From contig PEZY01000012.1 of NCBI GenBank assembly GCA_002773855.1, forward strand, positions 367,847 through 431,846: a stretch of DNA of 64,000 nt, in the 5' to 3' direction. The stretch's first letter is position 1. Each line of letters opens with the position of its first letter. Of this stretch, positions 33,698 through 51,585 are shown in pieces. The notes below the pieces were generated by a model. The model was not told the origin of the DNA and searched no databases. It worked only from the letters and a program-made list of their open reading frames with translations. Source of the DNA: Candidatus Buchananbacteria bacterium CG10_big_fil_rev_8_21_14_0_10_33_19. GTDB taxonomy: Bacteria; Patescibacteriota; Patescibacteriia; 2-01-FULL-39-33. Position numbers and translations under genes: made by a program.

Positions 33698-33832
33698 TTA
33701 TAGATTAACTTAACTTTGATTGAACCAATAAAACCACAATAACTCCCACCGCGATTACACCGATAAAAACGTAAATCATATTTTATATATTTATTAATTT
33801 TTTACTCTTGTTGCAATAATAAAAAATCTAAC

Positions 33833-34411: not shown

Positions 34412-34461
34412 AAATTGATAAATTGATAATTTATATTGGTAATTTTATCATTTTTTGGCAA

Positions 34462-34492
34462 ATAAAAAAAGCCCCGCAATTGCAGGGCTAGG
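34462..34492 (-). terminator. Terminator downstream of lipoprotein gene 34505-35287
   Basis: agccccgcaa/ttgcagggct hairpin with A-tract upstream on the plus strand. Confidence 0.55.
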
Positions 34493-34504
34493 ATTTTGAC
34501 TCAA

Positions 34505-35287
34505 TTAATAATTGAAGCCGATGTTGACATTAACGATGCCACCAGAGTATGGGATTAGAACTAACCCCGCAATGGCGTCGAAGATATCGAAATTCAGATA
34601 GGTGGAATATGGAGTGCCGATCAAATCAACCAGTTGAATAGTGGCATGATGACCATCAAAGCCAATAGGCAACCAACCAGCAAAATGCAGGGCGGTACCA
34701 ACTTTGGTATAAGCCATGAAATACTGATCACCAGTGTCGGTGACAATAGTCGCGTCACCACTTGCACTCCAATCACCTGGCATGTTATCAATTTGGAATT
34801 CAAAGAAATAGGAATCCACCAATTCGAACATGATGTTCAAGTTAGTAGTACTGCCAGCTGTCACGACCACGATCACAGAATCAAAAAACAATCTTTTATC
34901 GTGAACGTCATAAGCTTCGATCCAAACACTATAATTTGCTGGTACAATGGACAATTCGCCAAAGTAATTACCAGCGGCATCGACATCGATGACAAACGGA
35001 TCAGCATAAGCATTTGTTTGTGCTGGTGGGACACTAGAGTCTTCACCAAACCAAATGCTAATATAATCGATATTGTCTCGAAACATGTCGCCAATCTGGG
35101 TTTGAGTGTGGCTGAGTTTGGCACTTTGGTAATCATAAATATTACCAGAAACTACAACCTTCCCGGTTGTCGACGGAATTGGTGGTTCGTCTGCCGACGG
35201 ACCACTATATTGATCCGTCGGAGGACAACCCATATTAATTGAAGCCATGATTATAGCCAAAATTAAATAGGATGTTCTCGGTTTCAT
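34505..35287 (-). CDS. Lipoprotein, GC-rich, paralog of 35490-36323
   Basis: Lipobox (INMGC); C-terminal ~130 aa aligns with the neighbouring paralog (DNMPGDW…FDG…FDIFD…VNV.F); local GC is well above genome background. Confidence 0.55.
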   Translation of the reverse strand: MKPRTSYLILAIIMASINMGCPPTDQYSGPSADEPPIPSTTGKVVVSGNIYDYQSAKLSHTQTQIGDMFRDNIDYISIWFGEDSSVPPAQTNAYADPFVIDVDAAGNYFGELSIVPANYSVWIEAYDVHDKRLFFDSVIVVVTAGSTTNLNIMFELVDSYFFEFQIDNMPGDWSASGDATIVTDTGDQYFMAYTKVGTALHFAGWLPIGFDGHHATIQLVDLIGTPYSTYLNFDIFDAIAGLVLIPYSGGIVNVNIGFNY

Positions 35288-35447
35288 GTTGTTTTCCTTC
35301 TTGGCCTGGCCCTAATTGGACTCAGGTGTTGGTGGTGGTGGGGAGAATTCCCCTTTTCCAATCTAACTGAAGTTGGTTGGAAGGTACAATGAACTGTTAA
35401 TATTAGCATAGAGAGTCATTATTGTCAATAGCTGACCAAAAATAAAA

Positions 35448-35473
35448 CCCGCGATCACATTGTGACCGCGGGG
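35448..35473 (-). terminator. Terminator after lipoprotein gene 35490-36323
   Basis: cccgcgatcaca-t-tgtgaccgcggg long hairpin, A-tract on plus / U-tract on minus. Confidence 0.6.
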
Positions 35474-35489
35474 TACTCTTAACAGTAGG

Positions 35490-36323
35490 CTAATACTCTT
35501 GGAAATAAACGTTGACGTCCAAGCGTCCCAGCCATTCGGGGAAGATGTACGGTACGTTCATAAACCAGTAATCATTCTCCCGCAGCACATCAATGTCGAA
35601 GATGTTGAACTGCAACTCGGTAGCATAGTCCTTGCCATCCAGATCAGTGACAATCAAAGCCGATTCATCGACTCGACCATCAAAATCAATCGGCAAACTG
35701 GCCCGAAAAAGAACCACATATTCATTACTGCCCGAGTAAGGATAAACGCGCGAATACTGGCAGTAGTAGCCTTCCCCATTGACCACGAGATTGGCATAGC
35801 CATACTCACTATAGTCACCGGGCAGATCATCGACCACAAACTGAAACAGATAATGCTCGGACAAACCCAGTAATACTCCAAGTCGTCCGGATCTACCAGC
35901 GACTACGACCAAACTGGTGTTATAGACAAAAGTCTCCATGCCTAATTCATCGTAGGCCGTCACATACAAATTGTATTCACCGGCCGGTACCAATATACTG
36001 CCACTGTACGACCCATTAATTACATCAATGGAGTGGTAGTAAGATCCAATTTCCATCCCACCACCGCCTTTACCAATACCGCTGTCGGCCGGGAAAAAAA
36101 CGAAGGCCAACTGCCGAATCCGCGGCTTATGAAACTCCACAATGTCGTTCCAGTCCATCAGGGCCTTGCTCTCGTTGAAGTCGCCTTCAATGATGACATT
36201 GCCCATGCCGGCGGGGATTAAGAGTTCTTCCTCTACCGGTTCGCTGATCGGTGTGGTCGCTGGACAACCAGTTAACCCCACTACCAACATCAAGGTGGCC
36301 AGGATCACAAGAATTTTCTGCAT
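35490..36323 (-). CDS. Lipoprotein, GC-rich, paralog of 34505-35287
   Basis: Probable start MQKILVILATLMLVVGLTGC (lipobox) with AAGGAAGAG RBS; the ORF-track start at 36398 is an upstream extension; consensus promoter TTGACA-17-TATAAT at 36442-36470. Confidence 0.55.
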   Translation of the reverse strand: MQKILVILATLMLVVGLTGCPATTPISEPVEEELLIPAGMGNVIIEGDFNESKALMDWNDIVEFHKPRIRQLAFVFFPADSGIGKGGGGMEIGSYYHSIDVINGSYSGSILVPAGEYNLYVTAYDELGMETFVYNTSLVVVAGRSGRLGVLLGLSEHYLFQFVVDDLPGDYSEYGYANLVVNGEGYYCQYSRVYPYSGSNEYVVLFRASLPIDFDGRVDESALIVTDLDGKDYATELQFNIFDIDVLRENDYWFMNVPYIFPEWLGRLDVNVYFQEY

Positions 36324-36441
36324 GTTCTCTTCCTTTCGAATTAAGGTTATTAGCACCATACTAACAACCGATTGATGGAAATAAACCCGACTAGACAAAT
36401 CGAATTTACCATTTAACTATGTCAATGTTCTAATGTTTTGT

Positions 36442-36470
36442 TATTATATCATATATATTACACTTTGTCA
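36442..36470 (-). promoter_or_regulatory. Consensus sigma70-like promoter (TTGACA-17-TATAAT) for lipoprotein gene
   Basis: Exact -35 and -10 hexamers with a 17-nt spacer, read on the minus strand. Confidence 0.6.
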
Positions 36471-36580
36471 ATCAAATCCATAAATAATCACTCTTAAACG
36501 GCTATATTAGGCTATTTTTACTCAAAAACCTAAAAACCCAGCAACCACTGGGTTTTTAAATAATCCAATTCTTTGTATCT

Positions 36581-39232
36581 CTATTTTCTCTCACGAATAA
36601 CAGCTTGAGCCGCGGCTAATTTGGCAATTGGCACCCTAAATGGCGAACAGGACACGTAATCAAAACCTTCTCGATGACAAAACTCCACACTACTTGGCTC
36701 ACCACCGTGTTCACCACAAATCCCAACCTTTAAATTACTGCGAACACTTCTTCCTTTGGCGACCGCAATTTTCATCAATTCCCCCACTCCCTCTTGATCC
36801 AACACCTCAAACGGATCAGACTCATAAATACCTTTGGCAACATATTCTTTCAAAAATTTACCAGCATCATCTCGACTAAAGCCGCAACCCATCTGAGTTA
36901 AATCATTTGTACCAAAAGAGAAAAACTCCGCTTCCTCGGCAATCTTGTCGGCAGTGACCGCCGCTCTTGGAACTTCAATCATCGTGCCAATTTTATAATC
37001 CATTTGTATGCCAGCATTTTTTATAATCGTGTCTGCAATTACTACGGCTCTCTGTTTCAAAATAGAAAATTCTCGACTACTACCAATAAGTGGAATCATA
37101 ATTTCGGGCACGATTGGATTGCAACGACCACAAGTCGGACACTCACTAGAAACTTCAACTGCCGCTTCCATAATTGCTTGGACTTGCATATCATAAATTT
37201 CCGGATAAGTAATGGCCAGACGACAACCGCGATGACCCAACATCGGATTAAATTCGTGTAAATCAGAAATTTTGGCTTTTAATGTTCCTGCATCCACTTC
37301 CATTTCTCTAGCTAGTTCATAAATATCTTTTTCACTAGTCGGCAAAAATTCATGTAACGGTGGATCTAAAAGTCTAATAGTCACAGCATAACCTTCCATA
37401 GCATGAAATAAACCAATAAAATCTTTCTTTTGGTATGGTAATAGTTTGGCCAAAGCTTTTTTACGACCTTCCAGATCAGCTGACAAAATCATTTCCCGAA
37501 CCGCTTTAATTCTATCACCTTCAAAAAACATATGTTCAGTTCGGCATAGACCAACGCCTTCAGCTCCAAACCTTCTGGCCACCTTAGCATCATGAGGTGT
37601 ATCCGCATTAGTTCTAATCTTCAATCTTTTGATTTCGCTGGACCAATTCATAATTGTTCCAAAATCACCACTTAATTCCGGATCTTGAGTATTTAATTTC
37701 CCCAAATAGACTGTGCCATCTCCCCCATCTAAAGTGATAAAATCACCTTCTTTAACTACTTCACCAGTAGTCTTCAAAGTAAACTTGCGACCTTTTTCAT
37801 CAATAGAAATATCAGCACAACCAGCTACACAACAAGTACCCATGCCTCTAGCCACCACGGCGGCATGTGAAGTCATACCACCTCGAGCGGTCAAAATACC
37901 TTTAGCACTAAGCATACCATCAATATCTTCTGGTGATGTTTCTATCCGCACCAAAATCACATCTAGTCCAGCCTGAGTCTTAGCAAAGGCATCAGCAGCT
38001 GTAAAAGTAACTTGACCAACTGCGGCCCCCGGAGAAGCTGGCAAACCAGTCGCTACCACTTCTGCCTCACCCTTTGATATTGGATCTAATTGTTTGTGTA
38101 ATAATTGATCTAATTGATTGGGATCGACTTTCATCAACGCCTCTTCTCGATTCAAAACTCCCTCTTTGACCAATTCCACAGCAATTCGCACCGCCGCTGC
38201 CGCTGTTCTTTTGCCATTTCTAGCTTGTAATATATATAATTTACCCTCTTGAATAGTAAATTCCATGTCCTGCATATCACGGTAGTGTTTTTCTACTCGA
38301 TCACAAACAGTCACCAGTTCATCATAAATAACTTTATTTTGAGTTTCAAGATCTGATACCGGTTTAGGCGTTCTAATGCCAGCTACCACATCTTCACCTT
38401 GGGCGTTCATTAAATACTCACCATAAAATTTATTTTCACCAGTACTAGGATTACGAGTAAAGCAAACACCAGTGCCAGAATTATCATTCAAATTTCCAAA
38501 AACCATCGCCTGAATATTTACAGCGGTACCAATTAAATGCTTAAGATTGTTTAATTCTCTGTATCTTTTAGCTCGATAATTATGCCAAGAATTAAACACC
38601 GCATCAATAGCCAACTGTAATTGCTCTCTCGGATCTTGGGGGAAATCCACACCCTTTAATTCGACAATCTTAGCACGATATCTTTTGACAATTTCCTCTA
38701 AATGGCCGGCTGTTAAATCGGTATCGTATTCTGCGCCCACTGTATCCTTAACATTTTCTAAAATCTCTTCAAACTCACTACCGTCAACTTCCATTACTAC
38801 ATCACCAAACATCTGAATAAACCGACGATAAGAATCCCAAGCAAATCTAGGATTATTAGATTTTTCGGCCAAAGCTTCAACTGACTTATCATTTAAACCT
38901 AAATTTAAAATTGTATCCATCATACCTGGCATAGAAGCAGCCGCACCAGACCGAACAGAAACTAAGAGTGGATCATGAGTATCACCCAATTTCTTGCCCA
39001 TTTTTTCTTCTAATTCATTAAGTTTTTTTTCTATCTGATCACGCACCGCTTGTGGATAATTTTTGTCATTTTTATGATAAGTCTCACATACTTCAGTAGT
39101 CACTGTAAACCCAGGCGGCACCTTAATACCAAGACTACTCATTTCAGCTAGATTTGCACCCTTACCACCTAAAACTTCTTTTAAATCCTTATTTCCCTCT
39201 TCAAAGGAATAAACATATTTTTTTTCAGACAT
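36581..39232 (-). CDS. ppdK: Pyruvate, phosphate dikinase
   Basis: About 880 aa; ATP-grasp N-domain, central phospho-His domain (GGMTSHAAVVARGMG), C-terminal PEP-utilising TIM barrel. Confidence 0.9.
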   Translation of the reverse strand: MSEKKYVYSFEEGNKDLKEVLGGKGANLAEMSSLGIKVPPGFTVTTEVCETYHKNDKNYPQAVRDQIEKKLNELEEKMGKKLGDTHDPLLVSVRSGAAASMPGMMDTILNLGLNDKSVEALAEKSNNPRFAWDSYRRFIQMFGDVVMEVDGSEFEEILENVKDTVGAEYDTDLTAGHLEEIVKRYRAKIVELKGVDFPQDPREQLQLAIDAVFNSWHNYRAKRYRELNNLKHLIGTAVNIQAMVFGNLNDNSGTGVCFTRNPSTGENKFYGEYLMNAQGEDVVAGIRTPKPVSDLETQNKVIYDELVTVCDRVEKHYRDMQDMEFTIQEGKLYILQARNGKRTAAAAVRIAVELVKEGVLNREEALMKVDPNQLDQLLHKQLDPISKGEAEVVATGLPASPGAAVGQVTFTAADAFAKTQAGLDVILVRIETSPEDIDGMLSAKGILTARGGMTSHAAVVARGMGTCCVAGCADISIDEKGRKFTLKTTGEVVKEGDFITLDGGDGTVYLGKLNTQDPELSGDFGTIMNWSSEIKRLKIRTNADTPHDAKVARRFGAEGVGLCRTEHMFFEGDRIKAVREMILSADLEGRKKALAKLLPYQKKDFIGLFHAMEGYAVTIRLLDPPLHEFLPTSEKDIYELAREMEVDAGTLKAKISDLHEFNPMLGHRGCRLAITYPEIYDMQVQAIMEAAVEVSSECPTCGRCNPIVPEIMIPLIGSSREFSILKQRAVVIADTIIKNAGIQMDYKIGTMIEVPRAAVTADKIAEEAEFFSFGTNDLTQMGCGFSRDDAGKFLKEYVAKGIYESDPFEVLDQEGVGELMKIAVAKGRSVRSNLKVGICGEHGGEPSSVEFCHREGFDYVSCSPFRVPIAKLAAAQAVIRERK

Positions 39233-39330
39233 AATAGATGTTGTTAATTAAATTATTTAAAATAGTTGTTTAAAACAAAAAGATAGGCCACTTTGGTCCT
39301 ATCACTTTCCAATCTAGCTAGTCAAAACTA

Positions 39331-40323
39331 TCAGCCAATTTGCCGCTTGGAAAGCAATCCATTCTGAGCTCCAATTTTTTTAATGACTGAAGCTGAATTA
39401 TTTACCCCCCACTTTAGGGCTGTCTTAATAGTCTTATCATACAGTAAAGCTGCTGTAAAGGCAGACGAAAAAGCATCACCAATACCTACTGTATCGGCAC
39501 TTTTTACCTTGCTAGCTTTCATAAAATAATATTTTTTTCCATCATAGGCGTAAGCCCCAGTCGCTCCATCAGTAATCACTACCACTTCTGGTCCCAAGCC
39601 TTGGATATACTTTATCAAACCTTTGGTATTTTTTAATTTTTTAAATTCTAAAGCCTCATCTTTATTTAAAAATAATAACTTAACTTTTGGTAAATATTTT
39701 TTTAGTCTCGACGTACGCTTGAGCTGGGCACTACCAGGATTCCAAGCAATCTGACTGCCAGTTTTAACAATGGCATCGATAATCCCCTCCCAACCAATTT
39801 TAGGTAGTGAAGAAATATAAAACCAATCAGTTTTAAATTTATTTAAAGATAGATCCTTAGCGGCCAAGCCATCACTCGCCCCCCGATGCGCAAAAATTAT
39901 ATGTTCATTATCAGCACCCTTAACAGTTAAAATCATGGAAAAAGCTGTGGCCTTATTTTTATCAATTTTAATTAAATCAGAATTAACACCCTGACTTTTT
40001 AAATTAGCTAAAACTTTCTGACCATTATCATCCAAACCAACTTTTGCTATCACCCCAACTTTTAAACCTAATTTAGCTAATGACACCGAACTATTAGCTG
40101 CACCACCACCATAGGTTTGATAAATTTTATCAGCCAATATTTTAGCGCCGTACTCAAAAGCTAGTAATTTCTGTTTGGTCAAATTACTAGTAGAGATTAA
40201 TTCGCCCTCGCCAGAATAAAACATTAAATCACTAGTGGCCCCGCCAATAGAAACAATATCAAATTTTGAGGTTTTTAATTTAGTCATAATCAAATTATAG
40301 CAAAAAAATATTAAATTTGACAA
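39331..40323 (-). CDS. PfkB-family carbohydrate kinase (ribokinase-like)
   Basis: GG motif (GGATSDLMF), C-terminal DTVGIGDAFSSAF anion-hole motif; true start is probably the MTKLKTSKFDIV Met, 12 codons in. Confidence 0.65.
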   Translation of the reverse strand: MSNLIFFCYNLIMTKLKTSKFDIVSIGGATSDLMFYSGEGELISTSNLTKQKLLAFEYGAKILADKIYQTYGGGAANSSVSLAKLGLKVGVIAKVGLDDNGQKVLANLKSQGVNSDLIKIDKNKATAFSMILTVKGADNEHIIFAHRGASDGLAAKDLSLNKFKTDWFYISSLPKIGWEGIIDAIVKTGSQIAWNPGSAQLKRTSRLKKYLPKVKLLFLNKDEALEFKKLKNTKGLIKYIQGLGPEVVVITDGATGAYAYDGKKYYFMKASKVKSADTVGIGDAFSSAFTAALLYDKTIKTALKWGVNNSASVIKKIGAQNGLLSKRQIG

Positions 40324-40414
40324 TTAACTTTTTAAAACTCAGAAAATAGAGAACTAAAAAACCACTCATAAATATTGACGACTTAAAATAAATAATCAAC
40401 TATCTATTTATATA

Positions 40415-40867
40415 TTACCTAGTTATACTAATAGTGGCACTATTTTCGGCATTCGGAGCTGAAACAGTCACCCTGCCAGTCGTAGAATTTTTAAAAATAG
40501 TATACCCAACACCTTCACCAACTGAAGCTATGATACTTGGATCAACTGGCATAGACAAGATGTAATTTGGCACTAAATCTGTACTTAATATAATTAAAGA
40601 TGGACATGTTTCATCGTCTAAACAAATTTCTGTAGCTGTATTATTAATAGTTAATGGCAACGTTCCATTATTGTCCAAGGAAAATTGATAAACGGCATTT
40701 AAAATGATACTCACATCTATTCGTCTTTGAGCATTTCTAGTATCACCTAATTGTTTATTAGGGTTAATAGCAATAATAACAATACCGGCCAAAATACCAA
40801 TCGCCACTACCACTAATAAGATTTCTAAAAGAGTAAAACCTTTGAGTTGTGGTGGTATTTTTATCAT
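40415..40867 (-). CDS. Type IV pilin-like / pseudopilin (prepilin N-terminal methylation domain)
   Basis: KGFTLLEILLVVVAIGILAGIV: a G|FTLLE prepilin peptidase cleavage/methylation site followed by a hydrophobic helix. Confidence 0.7.
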   Translation of the reverse strand: MIKIPPQLKGFTLLEILLVVVAIGILAGIVIIAINPNKQLGDTRNAQRRIDVSIILNAVYQFSLDNNGTLPLTINNTATEICLDDETCPSLIILSTDLVPNYILSMPVDPSIIASVGEGVGYTIFKNSTTGRVTVSAPNAENSATISITR

Positions 40868-40928
40868 ACTTAAATTAATTATTTAATAATTAAATATATT
40901 ATCACACTTTATAAACCAATAAAAACAA

Positions 40929-42128
40929 TTATTTTTTTATAACCACTACTCCCTCTCTTAAAACTATGATATTACCAGCTTCTATTTTTACTAAAGTCGA
41001 TGGCGAAGATTCTAATTTACCACGATCAATATAAAAATCTACCATATTGCTAAAATATTTTTTAGCTTGACGAATAGTTAAGGCTGGATCTAAGCCTTCT
41101 GGATTAGCACTCGGTGCTACTAATGGTCCAGTTTTCCTCAGTAAAAATCTCAACCACTTATTATCTGGCAATCGAAAAGCCAAGGAATTAGTACCGCGAT
41201 GTAAATAATCTAATTTTTTATGACAACCCAAGATAACACTCACCTGGCCTGGCCAGTATTTTTGCAATATTTTTTTAGTTTTATTATCTATTTTTACGCC
41301 AAATTTATTTAAATCAGAAATTTGGCTAATTAAAATTATAAGTGGCTTATCAGGACTTCTTTTTCTAACTTTATAAATTCTTTCCACTGTATTTTTATTC
41401 AAAGCTTTACCAACTAAGCCATAAATAGTATCGGTTGGTACTACGCCAATACCGCCTTTTTTTAATATATCAATCTGTTGTTTAAAATACTTTTTAGACA
41501 ATTCATCAACACTTAATGTTTTTTTTAAATTAAAATCTCCTACTTTAGTTCTTTTTAACCCAGACATATAAGCACCCGTGTTTAAACTGGTACCAATATC
41601 TCGGGCCAAAGATCTAATATAAACTCCAGAACCACAAACCACCTTTATTTGAAGATCGGGAAATTTATACTTTAAAATTTTTATACTTTTAATTTCAACC
41701 GGTCTAGCTTGAAGTTCTATTGATTCACCATTTCTAGCTAGCTTATAAGATCTTCTCCCATGGACTTTGATGGCACTATACACAGGTGGAATTTGATTTA
41801 TCACACCAATAAATTTACTTATTGAGCTACTAACCTCATTACGCGTTATGTGTTTTATGTTTTGCATTATGTGTTTTATACCCTCTTCATCATCGGTCGT
41901 ACTAGAAATACCTAATTTAATATCAGCTACATATTCTTTTTCACCTCGAACAATATTGTCTAGTTGTCTAGTAGCTTCTCGTCCCAAGCCTACCACTAAA
42001 ATACCCTCAGCGAGCGGATCTAAAGTACCAGCATGACCAACCCTTTGTTCGCCGGTCGCTTTTTTAATTTGAGCAATTAAACTATAAGAGCTAGGCCCTT
42101 TTGGTTTATAAACTGCAAAGATATTCAT
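40929..42128 (-). CDS. Fusion protein: tRNA pseudouridine-55 synthase TruB (N-terminal) + L-threonylcarbamoyladenylate synthase TsaC/YrdC domain (C-terminal)
   Basis: N-terminus: GHAGTLDPLAEGILVVGLG catalytic Asp motif of TruB. C-terminus: VVPTDTIYGLVG, KPLIILIS and PSANPEG motifs of YrdC/Sua5. Confidence 0.65.
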   Translation of the reverse strand: MNIFAVYKPKGPSSYSLIAQIKKATGEQRVGHAGTLDPLAEGILVVGLGREATRQLDNIVRGEKEYVADIKLGISSTTDDEEGIKHIMQNIKHITRNEVSSSISKFIGVINQIPPVYSAIKVHGRRSYKLARNGESIELQARPVEIKSIKILKYKFPDLQIKVVCGSGVYIRSLARDIGTSLNTGAYMSGLKRTKVGDFNLKKTLSVDELSKKYFKQQIDILKKGGIGVVPTDTIYGLVGKALNKNTVERIYKVRKRSPDKPLIILISQISDLNKFGVKIDNKTKKILQKYWPGQVSVILGCHKKLDYLHRGTNSLAFRLPDNKWLRFLLRKTGPLVAPSANPEGLDPALTIRQAKKYFSNMVDFYIDRGKLESSPSTLVKIEAGNIIVLREGVVVIKK

Positions 42129-42224
42129 AACTTTGACATTACTAATTTAATCAGATATAATATATTTCTGTCGCACATTTAAAGAACAATATCTAAAAAC
42201 AAAAACCAGAAGGATATTTACCAA

Positions 42225-42386
42225 TATGTTTTTAGTAGCCCAAGAAAAATGTGGCTGCCTCTGCCATACCCTGGCCGGAGGCATGACGCATAAAATTAAT
42301 TGTTGTAAAACCTGTCCCTATTGTCAGAAAAATATTAAACCAGAATTCTACAGAAAACATACCAAAAGATGTAAAAAAGAACACAC
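42225..42386 (+). CDS. Small Cys/His-rich zinc-finger protein, family member 1 (53 aa; below the ORF-track size cutoff)
   Basis: MFLVAQEKCGCLCHTLAGGMTHKINCCKTCPYCQKNIKPEFYRKHTKRCKKEHTNN; shares the C.C.CH…CC..CP.C…(I/F)…(K/E)H…C pattern with three downstream genes; own terminator at 42404-42436. Confidence 0.5.
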
Positions 42387-42403
42387 TAATAACTAGATTG
42401 TTA

Positions 42404-42436
42404 TTGCCCCTTAACTCACTAAGGGGCTTTTTTTAT
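42404..42436 (+). terminator. Terminator after zinc-finger gene 1
   Basis: gcccctt-aactcact-aaggggc + T7. Confidence 0.7.
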
Positions 42437-42542
42437 TTAAAAAAAATACACTTTTAATTATTGACTTTATACCTATAATATGGTAATTTTTAATTAGTGG
42501 TTTATATGATTTAATTAGCAATTCTCTTTGGAGGATCTCAAG

Positions 42543-42737
42543 ATGTTTAAGCCAAAGAATGTTTTTAGAATTGAAATTTGTCATTGTGATGACAGTGGTC
42601 AAGATAATAAAAACAAAGACACTAAAACACCTTGTCATGCCATCTGTCCATTTTGTAATGAGAAAATTAGAATCAATTTTTTAGTCAAACATCTAACTGT
42701 TTGTGAAAAAAGACGTCCAGCTAAACATAAACTTTAA
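42543..42737 (+). CDS. Small Cys/His-rich zinc-finger protein, family member 2 (64 aa)
   Basis: GGAGG RBS 8 nt before ATG (the ORF-track TTG start at 42528 is unlikely); ICHCDD…CHAICPFCNEKIRINFLVKHLTVCEKRR. Confidence 0.55.
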   Translation: MFKPKNVFRIEICHCDDSGQDNKNKDTKTPCHAICPFCNEKIRINFLVKHLTVCEKRRPAKHKL

Positions 42738-42785
42738 ATCAATAATAGCACATTATCACAACTCAAAACAAGAAAGGGTGGCATC

Positions 42786-43016
42786 ATGGACCACTTTGGT
42801 GAATGTGATTGTGATTGTCATAATCCAAACATTATAGGTCAAATTAATCATGTTGGGCCATGTTGTTATGAATGCCCATATTGTCAAATGCGAATCACTC
42901 CGGGGTTTATTGATTTTCATAAGGCGGAGTGTCAAAAGAAAATTGAAGAGTATCTTAAGACGCAAGACACTTTTAATCCTATTGACTCCAACAAAACAGA
43001 AAACAAGAAAGGGTAA
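42786..43016 (+). CDS. Small Cys/His-rich zinc-finger protein, family member 3 (76 aa)
   Basis: GECDCDCHNPN…CCYECPYCQMRITPGFIDFHKAECQKK; aaGGGTGG RBS. Confidence 0.55.
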   Translation: MDHFGECDCDCHNPNIIGQINHVGPCCYECPYCQMRITPGFIDFHKAECQKKIEEYLKTQDTFNPIDSNKTENKKG

Positions 43017-43020
43017 TACC

Positions 43021-43347
43021 ATGGTCGTGAATGATTTTGAAATTTGTCATTGTAGATGTCATAATAATCCAAACATAATGCACTGCATGCCTTGTTGTCT
43101 ACCTTGTCATTATTGTGGAGCTAATATTAAACATTTTTATTTTGAAAAACATGTAACTGATTGTCAAGCGGCCATCAAAAATCAATGTACTAGTGACAGC
43201 GAATTATGTGATTGCGCCTTTCATCAATTACCAAGCCGTTGTTCGCCAGCTTGCTGTAAAGAATGCCCTAAATGTAAGTTGCACATTAAAGAAAAATTCT
43301 TTGCTGAGCATCTAGAAAAATGCTCGGGTAAAAAACCCAAAAAATAA
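43021..43347 (+). CDS. Small Cys/His-rich zinc-finger protein, family member 4 (two tandem finger modules, 108 aa)
   Basis: The ATG at 43021 follows the same aacaagaaagggt RBS context as member 3; ICHCRCHNNPN…CCLPCHYCGANIKHFYFEKHVTDC plus a second CDCAFH…CCKECPKCKLHIKEKFFAEHLEKC module; the ORF-track frame 42850-43347 is an upstream extension overlapping gene 3. Confidence 0.5.
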   Translation: MVVNDFEICHCRCHNNPNIMHCMPCCLPCHYCGANIKHFYFEKHVTDCQAAIKNQCTSDSELCDCAFHQLPSRCSPACCKECPKCKLHIKEKFFAEHLEKCSGKKPKK

Positions 43348-43348
43348 A

Positions 43349-43376
43349 AGTCTCAGACAATGAGACTTTTTTTATT
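43349..43376 (+). terminator. Terminator after zinc-finger array
   Basis: agtctca-gacaa-tgagact + T7. Confidence 0.7.
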
Positions 43377-44547
43377 TACCAACACTATAAAATCTATTGC
43401 GTCTTTTGCGTCGCCCCGCCGAATTACCAAATCGATGAGCTTCATCTCTAGCTTTAGTAATTAATTCCCGTTGGGACTTAGCCAACTCTTTAACGGCCAT
43501 ACTAGTTTTAATTGGAAAAACCATTCTATCTCCGGCCAATTTAGACAAGCCAATAATTGGAATACTAATACCAATTCTTTTTAAAACTTGATTGACATAA
43601 TCAATCTGTGGCTTACCGCCATCAATTAAAATTAAATTAGGAAATGGCCACTCAATGTGTTTAAATCTTCTCGTCAACATTTCTTCTAGACTTCTCAAAT
43701 CATCACTAGCTGGCGCCGTTTTAATATTAAACAAGCGATACTGATCTTTAGCTAATTGACCATTAATAACCACTGACATCGCGCCAACCGTTTCTTGACC
43801 AGTAAAGTGTGAAATATCATAACCCTCTATTCGATTTTTACCATGATTATTACTAAGTTCATCTTTGGTAATTAGTGTCACATCTTGAATATTTTTTAAA
43901 GCCGATAACACTTCGGGATTTTCTTTTTTTAATTTTGCCAGCAACCTTTTCTTTTCACCTTTAAACAATAAAACAATATTTAAAATATTTTTCTTATAAT
44001 CTTTTTTATTAATTTCCCCAATACAAGTACCGGGACATAATCCCACTTGATAATCAAAACAGGGTTTACCAGAATTTGGCGTGCAAGTACTATAAGGGAA
44101 AATCCGTCTGATAATTCGTAAAGTATTTTTTAACAACGTGGCATTTTGATAAGGTCCAAAAATATAAGCATCGGTAGTTGGAAACTTATTTAATTCTCGT
44201 TCCCGAATAATAATGGGGTAAGCATAATCTTTTTTAGAAATTACAATAAAAATAAACGACCGATGATCCTTATCCTTCACATTATACTTAGGCCAATGTT
44301 TTTTAATCAAATTAGCTTCCAAAATAATCGCTTCTAACACTGTGTCGGTTTGCTGGTGTTTAATATTTTGCGCTAAAGACACCATTTCACTAATTCGCGA
44401 ATCAATATCGAGTCGAAAATATTGCAAAACTCGACGCCGCAGACTAGTGGCGCGACCAATATAAAGAATCTCGCCCTTTTGGCCGATGAACATATACACC
44501 CCCGGTGTTAATGGTAAATTTTTCGCTAAATCTTTAATGTTTTTCAT
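43372..44547 (-). CDS. uvrC: UvrC-like excinuclease, short form (GIY-YIG + RNase H-like endonuclease domain; no UVR or (HhH)2 domains)
   Basis: N-terminal GIY-YIG (GVYMFIGQKGEILYIGRATSLRRR), Cys-rich box CFDYQVGLCPGTC, C-terminal IEGYDISHF…LILIDGGKPQI endonuclease domain; only 391 aa. Confidence 0.65.
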   Translation of the reverse strand: MKNIKDLAKNLPLTPGVYMFIGQKGEILYIGRATSLRRRVLQYFRLDIDSRISEMVSLAQNIKHQQTDTVLEAIILEANLIKKHWPKYNVKDKDHRSFIFIVISKKDYAYPIIIRERELNKFPTTDAYIFGPYQNATLLKNTLRIIRRIFPYSTCTPNSGKPCFDYQVGLCPGTCIGEINKKDYKKNILNIVLLFKGEKKRLLAKLKKENPEVLSALKNIQDVTLITKDELSNNHGKNRIEGYDISHFTGQETVGAMSVVINGQLAKDQYRLFNIKTAPASDDLRSLEEMLTRRFKHIEWPFPNLILIDGGKPQIDYVNQVLKRIGISIPIIGLSKLAGDRMVFPIKTSMAVKELAKSQRELITKARDEAHRFGNSAGRRKRRNRFYSVGK

Positions 44548-44560
44548 AAATTAACTGCTA

Positions 44561-44589
44561 TTGACAAAATACCATAAATATGATATAAT
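44561..44589 (+). promoter_or_regulatory. Perfect consensus promoter TTGACA-17-TATAAT
   Basis: TTGACA at 44561-44566, 17-nt spacer, TATAAT at 44584-44589; drives small gene 44638-44832. Confidence 0.65.
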
Positions 44590-44637
44590 TACAACAGTGT
44601 TGTACATTACTTTTGGCAAAAATTGGAGGAACTTGTT

Positions 44638-44832
44638 ATGCTCTGGATTATCCTGCGTGATTTCCACGCATCACTTGCAGACATGAAGGCCGCTGTCGAA
44701 CTTTTCAAGGAAGTTCATAGCGCTGAATCTCGGGGCCTTGGTCCAGCGATGATTGGCGGTCTCGTTTTCGAGACCAAGGGTGATATTCCATCTGAAGACC
44801 AGCTGGTCTTGGGCATCATCCCCTTCAGCTAG
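44638..44832 (+). CDS. Small hypothetical protein (64 aa) with atypical GC-rich codon usage
   Basis: GGAGG 8 nt before ATG; strong hairpin terminator at 44858-44898; codons mostly G/C-ending (ctg cgt gat ttc cac gca…), unlike the surrounding genome. Confidence 0.5.
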   Translation: MLWIILRDFHASLADMKAAVELFKEVHSAESRGLGPAMIGGLVFETKGDIPSEDQLVLGIIPFS

Positions 44833-44857
44833 CCTTTGACTAGTGGACATCAATTTT

Positions 44858-44898
44858 GGACTCTTAACTGCTAATCACAGTTAACGAGTCCTTTTTTA
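44858..44898 (+). terminator. Terminator after small gene
   Basis: ggactcttaactg…cagttaacgagtcc long hairpin + T6. Confidence 0.7.
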
Positions 44899-44944
44899 TT
44901 TTACCATAAATTGTTATACTAGCCTTATCGTGGAGGAAAAAATC

Positions 44945-45223
44945 ATGTTCATTCACAAAGAAATATATAACAAAATTTTCCACCAACCATTATTTCAACT
45001 AGATTTAAGTGGCGGTAAAGGTATACTTCTGATTCACAATTTACTTTGGGTTGTCGGTTTTACTATGATTATTACCGCTGTCGGCTATGCCTTGGGTCTT
45101 TATGATGAAACTGAAAATAAAAAAGATTTCAAAATTCCCAAAGATGTTATTTATATTTTCTTTATCGGACTAGCAATATTTTTAGCTAGTTTTTATGTTC
45201 CTATCCCTATTGTGCGTCAATAG
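44945..45223 (+). CDS. Small membrane protein (2 TM), hypothetical
   Basis: GGAGG RBS before MFIHKEIY…; two hydrophobic helices; the ORF-track start at 44930 is less likely. Confidence 0.4.
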   Translation: MFIHKEIYNKIFHQPLFQLDLSGGKGILLIHNLLWVVGFTMIITAVGYALGLYDETENKKDFKIPKDVIYIFFIGLAIFLASFYVPIPIVRQ

Positions 45224-45257
45224 GGATTTTTTATCATATAAATATCTTCATAAACCT

Positions 45258-45481
45258 GCGACAATTAAAAAATTTAAGGAGAAGATGAAACGAGAGCCCT
45301 GGCGATTGGGCGTCGTCTACATCCAAAATTTTCAACTGTTTGAACCATTTTCGACATATCTAGAATAATGAAAATGGTGAGTTTTGAAAATTAGCCAGGC
45401 GAAGTTTTAGATTCGACTATAAATTTTTTACTGTCGCGATTTTTGCGGTACTTTTTCTAAAAAAGTACCAAGGTGATTTAG
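45258..45481. repeat. Copy A of a ~225-bp hairpin-rich direct repeat (downstream of uvrA)
   Basis: About 85% identical to 48125-48356; conserved blocks gcgacaatt…aaggagaagatgaaacgagagccct.gcgattgggcgt.gtctac…gttttgaaaattagc…cgaagttttag.ttcgactataaattttttactgtcgcgatttttgcggtactttttctaaaaaagtacca. Confidence 0.75.
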
Positions 45482-45520
45482 AATAAAATTAGAAATTGAA
45501 AATTGAAAATTAATCCAAGT

Positions 45521-48115
45521 CTATTTCAAATACTCCTTAATATACTTGCCGGTCACACTCTTGGGGTCTTTCATCACCTGCTCTGGTGTCCCCTTAGCTA
45601 CAATATAGCCACCACGGTCGCCACCCTCGGGACCTAAATCAATTACATAATCAGCGGCATGAATAATATGTAAATTATGTTCAATGACGGCAATGCTATT
45701 TTGTCGATCGATTAATTTGTTTAATACTCCTAACAACAGTTCAATATCATGATAATGTAAACCAACAGTTGGCTCGTCCAGTAAATACAAAGTTTTTCGA
45801 CCCAAAGTATGCGTTAACTCTCTAGCCAATTTTATCCGCTGAGCTTCACCACCAGACAAAGTGGTCGCACTTTGACCTAATTGTAAATAACACAAGCCAA
45901 CTTCCTGTAAGACCTTTAATTTATCAGTGATCTGATAATGAGTATCAAAATAATCTATGGCCTCATCAATGGTTAAAGCTAGTACTTCGGAAATATTTTT
46001 ACCCTTATATTTCACCTGCAAAGTCTCCCGATTAAAACGCTTGCCATGACAGACTTCACACTCCACTGTTACCGCTGGCAAAAAATGCATTTCAATTAAA
46101 TTAACACCAGCCCCATCACAAGCTTCACACCGACCGCCCGGACGATTAAAAGAAAACCGCGACAAAGTATAACTTCGCTCTCGTGATTCTGGCAACATAG
46201 CAAAGAATTCTCTAATTGGTGTAAAAATACCGGTGTAAGTGGCTGGATTAGACCGAGGCGTTCGACCAATTGGCGATTGATCCACAATCACCACCCGATT
46301 AATATATTCAGTGCCAATAATTTTTGACACATCTTCTAAGTCCTCTTTTTTAACATTGGTCGCCAGTCGTGGATTGGCTTTTATTTTTTGAACATTTTTA
46401 TATAAGACATCATATAACAAAGATGATTTACCGCTACCAGACACCCCAGTAATACAGACCATTTTTCTAAGTGGAATATCCACTTGAACATTTTTTAAAT
46501 TATTAGCTCGCGCCCCAATAATTTTAATGGCTTCGCTAGTTGTCGTTCTTCTATTTGAGGCAGTTTCAATAAATCTCTCGCCTCGTAAATATTCTAAAGT
46601 CAAAGATTTTTGGGGATTAGTCTTTTTTAATAATTCTTTAGTCTCACCAATCGCTACTACTTCACCACCATGACGTCCAGCCAGTGGCCCTAAATCCACT
46701 AGATAATCCGAAGCCATAATTGTCCGCTCATCATGCTCGACAATAATCACGCTATTACCCTGATCTTTTAAAGCTTTTAGAGTTTTAATTAATCTTTCGG
46801 TATCTCTTTCGTGTAAGCCAATAGTTGGCTCGTCAAGTACATAAAGGGTTTTAGACAAATGCGAACCGATTTGTGAACCCAGTCTAATTCGTTGCGCCTC
46901 GCCACCAGATAATGTTTCCGCTTCGCGACTAAGCGACAAATAATTTAAACCTACCTGCAACAAGAAATCCAAACGATCACCAATCTCAATCACGACATTT
47001 TCGGCAATTTCTTTTTGACGGCTGGTCATTTTATTATGATAATCCACAAAAAAAGCATAAGCCTGTTCTATCGACAACGCACTGACTTCGGCTATATTTT
47101 TTTTATTAATTTTAACTGCCAATGGTTCGGCTCGCAATCTTTGGCCATGACACGACAAACAAGGTTCAATATTTTTCTCATATTTATTTTTATACTCACC
47201 TATTTCTTCGCCTTGATCATCAAATTTCTTTTTGGCTCCCCATTCTACTACTCGGCCTAAACCATTACACTTCTCACAAGCTCCGTGTGGACTATTAAAA
47301 GAAAATAATCTTGGCTCCACTTCAGGAAAGGCAAAGCCATCATTAGGGCAAGTCCAATTAGAGGACAACAAAAATTCTGGACTATCTTGTTTCTTTTCTC
47401 TAAACAAAGCAATAGCCAGTCCAGTGGCATAATTAATTGAATTTTCTACCGCTTCCGACAAACGACCTTCATCACTAATCATCACGCGATCAATCACAAT
47501 ATCAATACTGTGCTTGCTATGTCTAGCTAGTTTTACTTTTTCATGTAGCGAATAAAATTGACCATCAATTCTAGCTTCGGAAAAACCCAAAGCTAAATAA
47601 TCATAAAGCAACTGATAATATTCCCCTTTTCTATCGACGACAACAGGTGAAAGAATAGTAACATATTCTTCGTCCAACTCTTTGGCCCGGGATTTGATGA
47701 TATCAATCATCTCATCGAGTGCTAATTTATCAATTTTATGATTACATTTTGGACAATAAACTTCTCCTAACCGAGCATATAAAACGCGCAAATAATCATA
47801 AATTTCAGTCAGGGTGCCGACGGTAGACCGTGGATTATGCGACAAAGCCTTTTGGTCAATAGAAATAGATGGCGCTAGGCCAATGATTTCATCAACATCA
47901 GCCGGTTTCATTTGGCCCAAAAATTGCCGGGCATAAGGTGACAAAGATTCGATATAGCGTCGTTGGCCTTCAGCAAAAATGGTATCAAAAGCGAGTGATG
48001 ATTTACCACTGCCGGAGACACCAGTAAAAGCCACCAACTTGTTATGGGGTATTTCTAAACTAACATTTTTTAAATTGTGTACCCGCGCTCCACGGATGAT
48101 TATACTATCTTTCAT
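45521..48115 (-). CDS. uvrA: Excinuclease ABC subunit A
   Basis: Two ABC ATPase modules ([10 protein letters not shown] twice; LSGGEAQRI signature twice); zinc-finger Cys pairs. Confidence 0.9.
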
Positions 48116-48124
48116 ATTATATAA

Positions 48125-48356
48125 ATAAATTAATGCGACAATTTTAAAATTTAAGGAGAAGATGAAACGAGAGCCCTAGCGATTGGGCGTTGTCTACGCC
48201 CAAAATTTTCAATGTTTGAGAAACTTGTTCACTTATTTAAATAAAAAAGTTTCGAGTTTTGAAAATTAGCGGGACGAAGTTTTAGCTTCGACTATAAATT
48301 TTTTACTGTCGCGATTTTTGCGGTACTTTTTCTAAAAAAGTACCAATGTGATTTAG
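48125..48356. repeat. Copy B of the ~225-bp direct repeat (between uvrB and uvrA)
   Basis: See copy A; contains hairpins gggcgttgtctacgccc, cgaagc…cttcg and ggtactttttctaaaaaagtacc. Confidence 0.75.
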
Positions 48357-48382
48357 TGATATAAAAAACTATCCCAAAAAAC

Positions 48383-50224
48383 TTATTTCTCCACCACATC
48401 CAACATACTCTCAATATCTTTTTTAATCGTCTGAGGCGTAATCTTATATTTTTTATTGTAAGCCAATTGTAATTTCCTTCTTCTTTCTACTTCTTCAATC
48501 GCCCGCTTCATTGAACCGGTTTTTTTATCAGCATATAAAATCACTTTACCATCCACATTTCTCGCCGCTCGACCCATGGTCTGAATAAGCGCTTCCTCGC
48601 TTCGCAAGAAACCTTCTCGGTCAGCATCCATAATCGCCACCAGTGTTACCTCTGGTAAATCTAAGCCCTCGCGCAGTAGATTAACCCCCACCAAAATATC
48701 AAACTGACCCTCTCTAAACTCTTGCAAAATCTCGGTGCGTCTAAAAGTTTTGACATCACTATGCATATAGGCCGCTTTAAAGCCATTTTTCTGTAAATAA
48801 GCATCCAAATCTTCAGCCATTTTCTTGGTCAAGGTGTTAACAATCGCTCGTTCGCCTTTTTTAATTACTAATTTTAATTCTTCAATCAAATCGTCTACTT
48901 GGCTAATATTTTTCTTTTTATCAAACACTTGTCTAATTTCTATCGGTGGATCCACTAAGCCAGTTGGTCTAATCACTTGCTCGGCAATCGTCTTTGAATG
49001 TTTTATCTCCCAATCCCCTGGTGTCGCTGAAGTAAAAACCGTTTGACCAATACGTTCTAAAAATTCATCAAATTTTAATGGTCGATTGTCGAGGGCACTT
49101 GGTAATCGCCAGCCGTACTTAATTAAATTTTCTTTTCTGGCTTTATCGCCAGCATACATACCTCTGACCTGTGGTAAACCAATATGCGACTCATCCATCA
49201 CTAATAAAAAGTCTGGTTGGCCATTTTTATCCTTCGGGAAATAAGATAACAACGAATCTGGCGCCTCGCCAGATAATTTACCGGTCAAATGCCGAGAATA
49301 ATTTTCAATCCCATGACAATACCCCAAACTCCTTAACATTTCCATATCGTATTTAGTTCGACGTTCTAATCTTTCGGCTTCCAAATATAAATTATTTTTG
49401 TTATAAAATTTTAAACGATCTTTTAACTCCACTTTAATATCAGTAATAGCTCTCTCTATTTCTGGTTTAGTGGAAATAAAATGCTTGGGTGGAAAAATAA
49501 TGATATCTTTTAAACCCTCTATAATATGCCGAGTGGTTTTATCAACAATACCAATATCACTAATTTTTTGATCAGCTAATTCTAACCGATAGATTACATC
49601 CTCACCGGCTGGCCGAATTTCAAAGACATCGCCTCTTACCCGAAATGATCCCCTTACCAATTCACCAGTAGTTCTAGTAAATTGAATTTTAACTAACTGA
49701 GAAATTAAATCATGGCGAACAATATTTTGATCAATTTCTAAATGAAGTGATGACTGAGTATAGCTAACTGGTAAACCCAAATTATAAATACAGGACACGC
49801 TGGCTACAATGATGACATCACGCCTAGTCGCTAGAGCACTAGTCGCTTGATGACGCAATCTGTCTATTTCTTCGTTGATCATCGCTTCCTTTTCAATATA
49901 AGTATCACTAGTTGGCATATAAGCCTCTGGCTGATAATAATCATAATAAGATACAAAAAAATTAACACTGTTATCCGGAAAGAAATTTTTATACTCACGA
50001 TAAAGCTGAGCGGCCAAAGATTTATTTGGTGCCATTACCAAAACTGGCCGATTAAAATCAGTTATCAAATTAGCGGCCGTAAAGGTTTTACCAGAGCCCG
50101 TCACTCCTAGTAAGGTTTGAAAATCATTACCTATCTTAAGACTCTTAATTAGAGACCTAATCGCTTGGGGCTGATCACCAGTTGGCTGAAATTTTGATTT
50201 TAACTTAAATATTTTATCTGTCAT
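48383..50224 (-). CDS. uvrB: Excinuclease ABC subunit B, short form (no C-terminal UVR domain)
   Basis: Helicase motifs (GVTGSGKTF, DESH, QTMGRAARN), beta-hairpin region; 613 aa, ends before the UvrC-interacting coiled-coil (no …LEFEEAA..RD… motif). Confidence 0.85.
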   Translation of the reverse strand: MTDKIFKLKSKFQPTGDQPQAIRSLIKSLKIGNDFQTLLGVTGSGKTFTAANLITDFNRPVLVMAPNKSLAAQLYREYKNFFPDNSVNFFVSYYDYYQPEAYMPTSDTYIEKEAMINEEIDRLRHQATSALATRRDVIIVASVSCIYNLGLPVSYTQSSLHLEIDQNIVRHDLISQLVKIQFTRTTGELVRGSFRVRGDVFEIRPAGEDVIYRLELADQKISDIGIVDKTTRHIIEGLKDIIIFPPKHFISTKPEIERAITDIKVELKDRLKFYNKNNLYLEAERLERRTKYDMEMLRSLGYCHGIENYSRHLTGKLSGEAPDSLLSYFPKDKNGQPDFLLVMDESHIGLPQVRGMYAGDKARKENLIKYGWRLPSALDNRPLKFDEFLERIGQTVFTSATPGDWEIKHSKTIAEQVIRPTGLVDPPIEIRQVFDKKKNISQVDDLIEELKLVIKKGERAIVNTLTKKMAEDLDAYLQKNGFKAAYMHSDVKTFRRTEILQEFREGQFDILVGVNLLREGLDLPEVTLVAIMDADREGFLRSEEALIQTMGRAARNVDGKVILYADKKTGSMKRAIEEVERRRKLQLAYNKKYKITPQTIKKDIESMLDVVEK

Positions 50225-50350
50225 AATTATTATTTTTCATATACGCAAAAATGGCCGTGATTCACGACGTATAGGGGTATATTATAACAAAATTAGACTT
50301 TTAGCAAATAAAAACAGCCCTTTTGAGGGCTGTTTTAAAAATCAACTTAA

Positions 50351-50872
50351 CTATTCTACAATCAACTGACCAAACATACCATTAGCTCGATGTTGACCAA
50401 CACTACAGTAATACTCAAAAGTACCAGTTTTATCCGCTATAAACTCTACTGTTTTTGACTCCCCAGCTCTAATTTGACCAGTATTAACTCCAAATTCATC
50501 AATAATTAAATCATGAAAGCCTTCGATATTATTGAAAGTAATTTTTACTTTATCACCCTGTTTAACTTTTATTTCTTTCACAGAAAAAGCAAAGTTATCA
50601 CCTTCAACAGTAAACTCCTTAACATCACTCATCATTTCATCACCACTAACCTGACCATCCCCACCTACCATCATTTCGTCAACACCTTCACCAGATTCAT
50701 CTGATGCTGGCATGGTTAAATTAATATCATCACCATCTTGATCATTAATCTGATCACCCATCATATAATCATCACCCAAACTTTCTTTAGTCATTTTAGT
50801 ATAACCATAATAACCACCAGCTAAAACGATAATTACCAAAGCTACAATTAATAATATTTTATTAGTACCCAT
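50351..50872 (-). CDS. Membrane-anchored cupredoxin (type-1 copper protein, plastocyanin/azurin-like)
   Basis: N-terminal TM, acidic linker, C-terminal cupredoxin with H…C…H…M ligand set (FHDL; YYCSVGQHRANGM). Confidence 0.6.
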   Translation of the reverse strand: MGTNKILLIVALVIIVLAGGYYGYTKMTKESLGDDYMMGDQINDQDGDDINLTMPASDESGEGVDEMMVGGDGQVSGDEMMSDVKEFTVEGDNFAFSVKEIKVKQGDKVKITFNNIEGFHDLIIDEFGVNTGQIRAGESKTVEFIADKTGTFEYYCSVGQHRANGMFGQLIVE

Positions 50873-50886
50873 ATTTTTTTATTTAA

Positions 50887-51540: not shown

Positions 51541-51585
51541 TTATTTTTATAAATTATAATCTAACCGTTCAAGTTAATCAATACC

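Follow-up and report, generated by a model that had tools for sequence, protein, structure and literature searches.

A putatively new composite zinc-finger family with a UBZ4-like half, and its four-gene array in Candidatus Buchananbacteria

Zinc fingers of the UBZ4 type are regarded as an innovation of eukaryotes, linked to the ubiquitin signals of DNA repair. Small zinc-finger proteins such as Mu Com, P2 Ogr and P4 Delta, YacG and the haloarchaeal CPxCG micro-proteins use zinc as a scaffold and bind RNA, RNA polymerase or gyrase, and the bacterial metallothioneins SmtA and BmtA hold 11 ligands (Cys9His2 in SmtA) in ~50 residues, with a zinc-finger-like sub-fold inside the cluster. Here we describe four consecutive plus-strand genes, g1 to g4, encoding small Cys/His-rich proteins in a genome of Candidatus Buchananbacteria (Patescibacteria). 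The array lies in a 64-kb stretch of contig PEZY01000012.1, the whole of which is referred to as the window (coordinates in Table 1).

The proteins consist of one or two copies of a module of ~45 residues. They resemble the small zinc-finger proteins listed above in size (50–110 amino acids (aa)) and in occurring both in phages and on chromosomes, but those proteins have four-ligand sites and not a Cys8His3 cluster, and Pfam and NCBIfam scans revealed no sequence relationship to Mu Com, Ogr/Delta, YacG or the CPxCG proteins. With SmtA and BmtA the module shares eleven Cys/His ligands in a similar length, although there is no sequence match. The likeness to the UBZ4/Rad18-type C2HC finger is confined to the C-terminal half of the module and comprises the C-x2-C-x11-H-x3-C ligands, a G-x-N-I turn that follows the knuckle and a fold predicted to be beta-beta-alpha; unlike UBZ domains, the module adds a seven-ligand N-terminal cluster, and the window proteins fall under every Pfam cut-off. 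To our knowledge its hosts, bacteria and phages, are also devoid of ubiquitin, unlike those of UBZ4. A further parallel is provided by the Gn tail of bunyaviruses (Crimean-Congo haemorrhagic fever virus (CCHFV), structure 2l7x, and hantavirus), where compact, tightly packed double beta-beta-alpha fingers bind protein or ribonucleoprotein (PMC12163917, PMC3243910). The module likewise appears to pack several zinc ions compactly, with an H-x3-C pair that directly precedes the next CPYC knuckle. It differs from the dual CCHC finger of Gn in its front half, which reads CxCxCH and not CxxC and for which no beta-beta-alpha fold is predicted, in its ligand number (11 versus 8), and in belonging to soluble free-standing proteins and not to a glycoprotein tail.

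The Cys8His3 module and its UBZ-like half

When 1.84 billion cluster representatives were searched with a profile made solely from the five window modules, 771 of them matched at E<=1e-3 and 33 at E<=1e-10. Nearly all matches were 50–110 aa long and aligned over the whole module, and the complete motif was present in ~140 of the top 150. Raw counts from Cys-rich profiles are slightly inflated, as illustrated by P0007, a repetitive protein of 1140 aa that scored E=5e-21 through 18 short 'CC..P' stretches; it lacks the motif and is a compositional false positive. A word-index homologue search, with either g3 alone or an alignment of 110 single-module representatives as query, returned almost only the query's own entries.

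The five window modules have C7, C9, C26, C30, C33, I37, H45 and C49 in common (g3 numbering), and each ends in CxxC-x11-H-x3-C. Ten positions of the 110-representative alignment never vary (C7, C9, C11, H12, H22, C26, C27, C30, C33 and H45), and conservation reaches at least 90% at I37 and C49. The resulting family signature, CxCxCH-x(5-9)-H-x3-CC-x2-C-x2-C-x11-H-x3-C, contains eight Cys and three His. The CxxC-to-His spacing equals 11 in 132 of 148 family modules, and 144 of them place the central His four residues ahead of CC; the Cys/His spacing, on whose conservation in homologues the earlier note had made its proposal depend, is thus conserved. Also conserved are the strand G-[KQR]-[NR]-I-[KR], which is the sole constant basic feature, and an F/Y residue before the His, while the helix positions flanking His and Cys vary.

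When the ORFs (open reading frames) of the window were compared with a hidden Markov model (HMM) of the family, built from the 110-sequence alignment with g1 and g3 included, the four array genes scored 1e-28 (g4), 1.2e-20 (g3), 1.1e-18 (g1) and 7.9e-9 (g2), and no further ORF of the 64-kb window scored better than E = 1. The four consecutive paralogous genes that had been proposed from the sequence are therefore all present, far beyond chance, and chance ORFs were rejected as an explanation on fold, conservation and context. The proposed lengths of 64, 76 and 108 aa hold, whereas g1 encodes 56 aa and not 53.

Not one model in Pfam-A, NCBIfam, PHROGs or PADLOC covers the whole module, which agrees with the earlier statement that no described family matches. 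Cluster look-ups and source records gave only 'hypothetical protein' or no name, and we found no description of the motif in the literature, be it on prokaryotic UBZ fingers or on the small Cys-rich proteins of bacteria in the Candidate Phyla Radiation. All database signals are confined to the C-terminal half. g2 is the sole window protein with a match of this kind, to zf-Di19 (PF05605; 25.9 bits, E=1.2e-5, under the 27.5 cut-off), and only its CPFC...H stretch is involved. No window protein matched zf_UBZ (PF18439; cut-off 25.6 bits). The syntenic ortholog P0004 reached 26.2 bits against this model, yet no single stretch passed alone; another ortholog, P0003, reached 24.9 bits. P0151 scored 25.4 bits against zf-C2HC_2 (PF13913), for which the cut-off is 27. 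In profile comparisons the family matched the UBZ domain of RAD18 (5vf0_B) at E=5.9e-4 and the CCHFV Gn tail (2l7x_A) at E=2.7e-3, the latter alignment running through H-x3-C...CPYC...H-x3-C; g3 residues 8–56 also align with Pfam Nairovirus_Gn (PF20726), at 15.1 bits and far under the cut-off of 26.5. The window profile in turn retrieves P0082, a genuine eukaryotic multi-UBZ protein (46.8 bits on zf_UBZ).

In the AlphaFold2 model of g3 computed from the 110-sequence alignment (mean pLDDT, the predicted local distance difference test score, 83.9) the chain makes a short turn at CxCH, forms a hairpin around CPYC, the knuckle, and has a helix that starts at residue 39 and carries H45 and C49; its N-terminal half is not predicted to be beta-beta-alpha. 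The g4 model, based on 12 two-module sequences (mean pLDDT 77), repeats the g3-like layout with the same secondary structure in modules a and b. Foldseek superimposed the RAD18 UBZ domain with a root-mean-square deviation of 0.8 A over 30 columns at a non-significant E-value of 1.6; all Foldseek matches were non-significant, yet they were consistently UBZ, TRAF or CHHC fingers.

The resemblance of the C-terminal half to Rad18/UBZ4 that had been noticed by eye is thus supported by profile matches and the predicted fold, and we assign this half (CxxC-x11-H-x3-C) to the UBZ4/C2HC-type beta-beta-alpha fingers on the strength of the models. The N-terminal half (CxCxCH...H-x3-CC) appears to be a new cluster that is without a described relative. 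Judged by sequence, the module thus defines a new composite zinc-finger family, in which a UBZ4-like finger is joined to a novel Cys/His cluster. Its eleven ligands would suffice for two to three structural Zn(II) ions.

Within the array the full signature is found in g1, g3 and g4 module a. The pattern first proposed for all four proteins (C-x-C-x-CH, a short linker, then CC-x2-CP-x-C-x(10-12)-(K/E)H-x3-C) is exact in g1 and nearly so in g3, where F-H stands for (K/E)H, whereas g2 and both g4 modules deviate from it; that g4 carries the module twice was correctly recognised. In g4 module b, which begins CDCAFH, Phe replaces C11, Cys replaces H22 and, seven residues before CxC, there is an extra Cys. 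The module still has 11 ligands, and the three changes recur in the orthologs P0002, P0003 and P0006; His/Cys swaps with a compensating gain of Cys are the behaviour expected of metal ligands. g2 has CHCDD, lacks C11, H12 and H22 and has His for C27 (C-H replacing CC), so that 8 of 11 ligands are kept. Its orthologs in five related loci (L198, L199, L203, L204 and L205) have the same reduced pattern, RIDICxC...PCC-x2-CPFC-x-E-x-IRL-x-FF...HV-x2-C, so that g2 is a subtype conserved with its 8 ligands and not a decayed copy. That C11, H12 and H22 are lost together in g2 suggests that these three residues contribute to one, the third, metal site.

Origin and divergence of the array

Eight related loci keep the chromosomal slot of the array, in which family genes (+) stand between a truB-tsaC gene (-) on one side and uvrC (-), uvrA and uvrB on the other, albeit with one to three family genes against four in the window. 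The slot holds the two-module gene only in L200–L202, a g2-type and the two-module gene in L203 and L204 as well as on the short contigs L198 and L199, and a g1-type, a g2-type and the two-module gene in L205. g1, g2 and g4 therefore belong to older paralog types, whose orthologs are found in this slot in related genomes (for g1, in L205), whereas g3 is absent from all eight loci. The array region of 1.3 kb is identical base for base across six independent metagenome assemblies. The four genes are real and vertically inherited.

The origin of g3 is indicated by a segment of 33 nucleotides (nt) that is present twice, at 79% identity, and places the exact 15-mer AAAACAAGAAAGGGT on both sides of the gene. 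The duplicated upstream segment with its ribosome-binding site, seen previously in front of members 3 and 4, is thereby confirmed. L198 has a single copy of this segment, ATAGCACATTA...AAACAAGAAAGGGTAACACCATGGTCG, upstream of its g4 ortholog. Together with the absence of g3 from the relatives, the flanking 15-mers and the single copy in L198 identify g3, as far as sequence comparison can tell, as a lineage-specific tandem duplicate of the ribosome-binding site and first module of g4. The second copy of the ribosome-binding site is now read as part of the C-terminal tail of g3. At the DNA level g3 is locally identical to g4 module a (CATAATCCAAACAT), and their amino-acid identity is only ~40%, so that the duplication is 'recent' in phylogenetic placement only. 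Growth of the array by recent tandem duplication, as envisaged in the earlier note, thus applies to g3, in placement and not in sequence, and not to the older g1, g2 and g4.

Rates of change were compared with those of the neighbouring uvrC. Between the window and L198, UvrC is 93% identical at the amino acid level, with a nonsynonymous rate (dN) of 0.043 and a ratio of nonsynonymous to synonymous rates (dN/dS) of 0.06; the corresponding values are 58%, 0.34–0.37 and ~0.35 for g4 (LWL85) and 45%, 0.46 and 0.31 for g2. When L199 was also included, g4 gave a dN of 0.31–0.37, a synonymous rate (dS) of ~1.0–1.3 and a dN/dS of ~0.24–0.35 (LWL85), and g2 a dN/dS of 0.16–0.31. The array proteins are under purifying selection; outside the frozen ligands they change ~8x faster than uvrC.

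Distribution of the family and its possible roles

The distribution of the family was surveyed with a degenerate DNA pattern of the motif, the matches to which were filtered with the family HMM; about one third of them were true members. Among the genome matches listed, true members occurred in ~42 of 120 loci, more than half of them from Patescibacteria, proportions that are indicative only. The patescibacterial hosts include Saccharibacteria, Paceibacteria, Lloyd-, Uhr- and Azambacteria; the others include Gemmatimonadota, Abditibacteriota, Nitrospirota and a few proteobacterial metagenome-assembled genomes (MAGs). Family ORFs were also found in ~30 of 71 pattern-matching viral loci of IMG/VR, and four of these contigs were confirmed as phage by genes for DNA polymerase and UvsX, portal and clamp, the small terminase, and an integrase. 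A tblastn search of 50,697 GenBank phage records with two members gave no real match at BLAST sensitivity. Outside this clade each locus has a single family gene, and in other Patescibacteria the gene lies among housekeeping genes (ribosomal proteins L9 and L27, RNase P protein and YidD, as judged by eye from N-terminal sequences). Of the eight related loci, the tandem arrangement that the earlier note proposed to look for is present in L198, L199 and L203–L205.

Several family members are fused to other domains. In Nitrospirota MAGs the module follows an Smr nuclease domain as a C-terminal Cys8His3 module (L045, 4–453 (+); L107, 5158–5658 (-)), and on IMG/VR contigs it precedes a YAcAr SLOG/DprA-like domain (L159, 5929–6468 (+); L197, 11088–11582 (+)). 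A fusion to a YunG domain was also found. The viral fusions L138 and L170, both of which were scanned, have Pfam-negative C-terminal domains, and L181 is a close homolog of L138.

The reading that we favour, and to which we give about an even chance, is that the proteins are zinc-stabilised free-standing recognition or adaptor modules of an uncharacterised mini-domain family, which dock on protein or nucleic acid. The modular use in fusions with Smr, YAcAr SLOG/DprA-like and YunG domains is one of the points in its favour. The zinc ions would only hold the fold together, and the working part would be the variable surface of hairpin and helix, together with the tails. Each paralog would dock on a partner protein or nucleic acid, much as the phage regulators Mu Com and P2 Ogr and the protein YacG do, and would be neither an enzyme nor a metal store. 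The array arose by duplication inside one fixed chromosomal slot, and the subsequent divergence of the copies in charge and surface suggests different targets. Three points weigh against this reading. Zinc binding and its stoichiometry are predictions from sequence. Across 69 loci there was no recurrent neighbour gene and thus no partner that would point to a target. Finally, the net charge of the family is mixed, with 48 acidic, 36 basic and 29 neutral proteins among the 113 that have a single module; general binding of nucleic acids by the family is therefore unsupported, and we do not commit to it family-wide.

The rival that fares best, unlikely as it is, takes the module to be of phage origin and to serve in virus-host conflict, such as host take-over or anti-defence, with domesticated copies on patescibacterial chromosomes. 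The family ORFs on viral contigs, the YAcAr SLOG fusions found there, and a fast-evolving surface around fixed ligands would all fit such a role. Against it stand the lack of a PHROG family and of a match in the GenBank phage records at BLAST sensitivity, a dN/dS well under 1, and the chromosomal contexts: in this clade the genes are syntenic residents of the core genome with normal G+C content, and in other Patescibacteria their neighbours look like housekeeping genes. Seven family proteins compared with the defence models of PADLOC-DB gave nothing better than E=0.05. The anti-invader function suggested earlier accordingly finds no backing in PADLOC matches, conserved neighbours or genomic context, although the family, given its presence in phages, may have a conflict role; such a role is not indicated at this core-genome locus.

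A second proposal, which we regard as improbable, is a metallothionein-like buffer or store for Zn(II) or thiophilic metals, its capacity tuned by gene copy number. It could draw on the density of ligands, 11 in ~43 residues with CxC, CC and CxxC motifs, and on the variable copy number of the slot, which contains one to four genes. However, no metallothionein family was matched in Pfam or NCBIfam, and no metal transporter or metal regulator lies near the array or recurs across the 69 loci. Unlike SmtA and BmtA, the module has a conserved hydrophobic core (I37 and the F/Y before the His) and a long helix in a confidently folded model, is fused to Smr, SLOG and YunG domains, and occurs in phage genomes.

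We are equally doubtful of a true functional UBZ, that is, a finger that recognises a ubiquitin-like protein tag or works with nucleotide excision repair in the way in which eukaryotic UBZ4 proteins serve the DNA-damage response. The sequence and predicted-fold similarity to RAD18 UBZ would speak for it, as would the constant adjacency to uvrC-uvrA-uvrB in this clade and the Smr nuclease fusion in Nitrospirota, which brings to mind Cue2 and N4BP2, eukaryotic Smr nucleases with ubiquitin-binding domains. Yet the array genes are convergent with uvrC and outside its operon, and the uvr neighbourhood is clade-specific, being found in 0 of 68 other loci. The helix positions flanking His and Cys are variable, with no conserved ubiquitin-contact signature evident, and no genes for ubiquitin-like conjugation were seen in the ORFs near the array (33000–52000).

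Precursors of RiPPs (ribosomally synthesised and post-translationally modified peptide natural products), whose clusters typically contain tandem small Cys-rich genes like this array of short, diverging paralogs, were rejected as exceedingly improbable on grounds of context, conservation and fold. A maturation enzyme, a transporter or a protease was found neither near the array in the window nor as a recurrent neighbour in the 69 loci; conservation extends over the entire peptide, as in a folded domain and not as in a leader with a variable core, and the module occurs twice in one protein and fused to enzymes.

A bolder version of the adaptor reading, in which we place little confidence, would make the module a new multi-zinc fold, probably with three Zn on 11 ligands, and the prokaryotic and phage counterpart, possibly even the ancestor, of the eukaryotic UBZ4/Rad18-type damage-response finger; it would work as a lesion-site or protein-tag adaptor, in this clade with the adjacent UvrABC and in the Smr/DprA-like fusions with nucleic-acid processing. 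The family would become far more interesting if three zinc ions in a fold of new topology, or a connection with repair, were demonstrated. With at least 771 clusters in bacteria and phages, the UBZ-like finger would be traced back to prokaryotes, where its role would be independent of ubiquitin. The module is among the densest conserved Cys/His arrangements in free-standing bacterial proteins, and since it is missing from Pfam, NCBIfam and PHROGs, thousands of small genes stay unannotated or uncalled. The reduced genomes of Patescibacteria are rich in small proteins of this obscure kind, to which a vertically kept, locally duplicating locus offers a tractable entry point; proteins of 56–108 aa that are predicted to fold should suit metal analysis and nuclear magnetic resonance.

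Organisation of the locus and neighbouring genes

The array has the same G+C content (0.30–0.34) as its surroundings and is flanked by the truB-tsaC(Sua5) fusion on one side and by uvrC, followed by uvrA and uvrB, on the other. g2 has the ribosome-binding site GGAGGA, g3 and g4 each have AAAGGGT at the proper distance from the start codon, and only 4 nt separate the g3 stop from the g4 start. Terminators, one after the first gene and one after the last, had been proposed, and hairpins are indeed found at both places; one resembling the second is likewise present after the g4 orthologs of L198 and L199. Between 42000 and 45600 neither an Rfam nor a tRNA scan gave a match.

Table 1. Features of the array and its flanks in the window
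Feature	Position	Strand	Description
promoter-like site 5' of g1	42133-42161	+	TTGACA, 17-nt spacer, TATAAT; 12/12 match to the sigma-70 consensus only
g1	42226-42396	+	56 aa; one canonical module (CGCLCH...H-x3-CC-x2-CPYC-x11-H-x3-C); basic, isoelectric point (pI) 9.3
terminator-like hairpin 3' of g1	42406-42427, T-run to 42437	+	8-bp stem with 5 GC pairs, TTTTTTTATT tail
possible weak promoter of g2-g4	42461-42489	+	TTGACT, 17-nt spacer, TG-n-TAATTT; putative, found by eye, under the scan threshold
g2	42543-42737	+	64 aa; reduced 8-ligand subtype (RIEICHC...PCH-x2-CPFC-x11-H-x3-C); basic, pI 9.4
duplicated segment, copy 1	42757-42789	+	spans ribosome-binding site and start codon of g3; exact 15-mer at 42765-42779
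g3	42786-43016	+	76 aa; one canonical module and 20-aa tail; acidic, pI 5.4
duplicated segment, copy 2	42992-43024	+	encodes last g3 residues, also g4 ribosome-binding site; 15-mer at 43000-43014
g4	43021-43347	+	108 aa; two modules; pI 8.3
g4 module a	43021-43185	+	residues 1-55; canonical, CHYC replacing CPxC
g4 module b	43186-43347	+	residues 56-108 and stop codon; variant C-x6-CxC-x-[FY]H...C-x3-CC...
bidirectional terminator-like hairpin	43346-43370	.	common to g4 (+) and convergent uvrC (-)
truB-tsaC(Sua5) fusion	40929-42128	-	399 aa
uvrC	43372-44547	-	391 aa
uvrA	45521-48115	-	
uvrB	48383-50224	-	

Automatic gene calls at this locus are inconsistent. In the six metagenome assemblies of the same organism (L001–L006) g2 is uncalled in three and g4 is called as 86, 89 or 108 aa; g1 is never called in the listed loci, and a spurious minus-strand ORF of 42 aa is called across it. 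Annotation of the family's small Cys-rich genes is probably incomplete elsewhere as well.

UvrC of the window is short; it contains GIY-YIG and UvrC RNase-H-like domains, Pfam recognised neither a C-terminal helix-hairpin-helix region nor a UVR motif in it, and its relatives have 392–417 aa. In the uvrC-uvrA spacer of ~970 nt the G+C content rises to 0.41 from ~0.33 (44400–45000). The spacer includes an ORF of 69 aa (44623–44832) without conservation. The 63-aa ORFs called in two relatives (L200, 7696–7887; L203, 8116–8307) resemble, by eye, the C-terminal part of a hydrophobic 97-aa ORF at 44930–45223 (+).

On the other flank, the gene at 40929–42128 encodes a single protein in which TruB (TruB_N and TruB_C_2) is fused to a Sua5/YciO/YrdC domain (TsaC-type, t6A pathway); the fusion is kept at 399–401 aa in L200–L205. 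The protein of 150 aa encoded at 40415–40867 (-) adjoins a PfkB-family kinase and pyruvate phosphate dikinase, and has a weak N-terminal methylation (type IV pilin-like) motif slightly under the Pfam cut-off. In L200–L202 the corresponding region contains pilus assembly genes of the type II secretion system E/F type.

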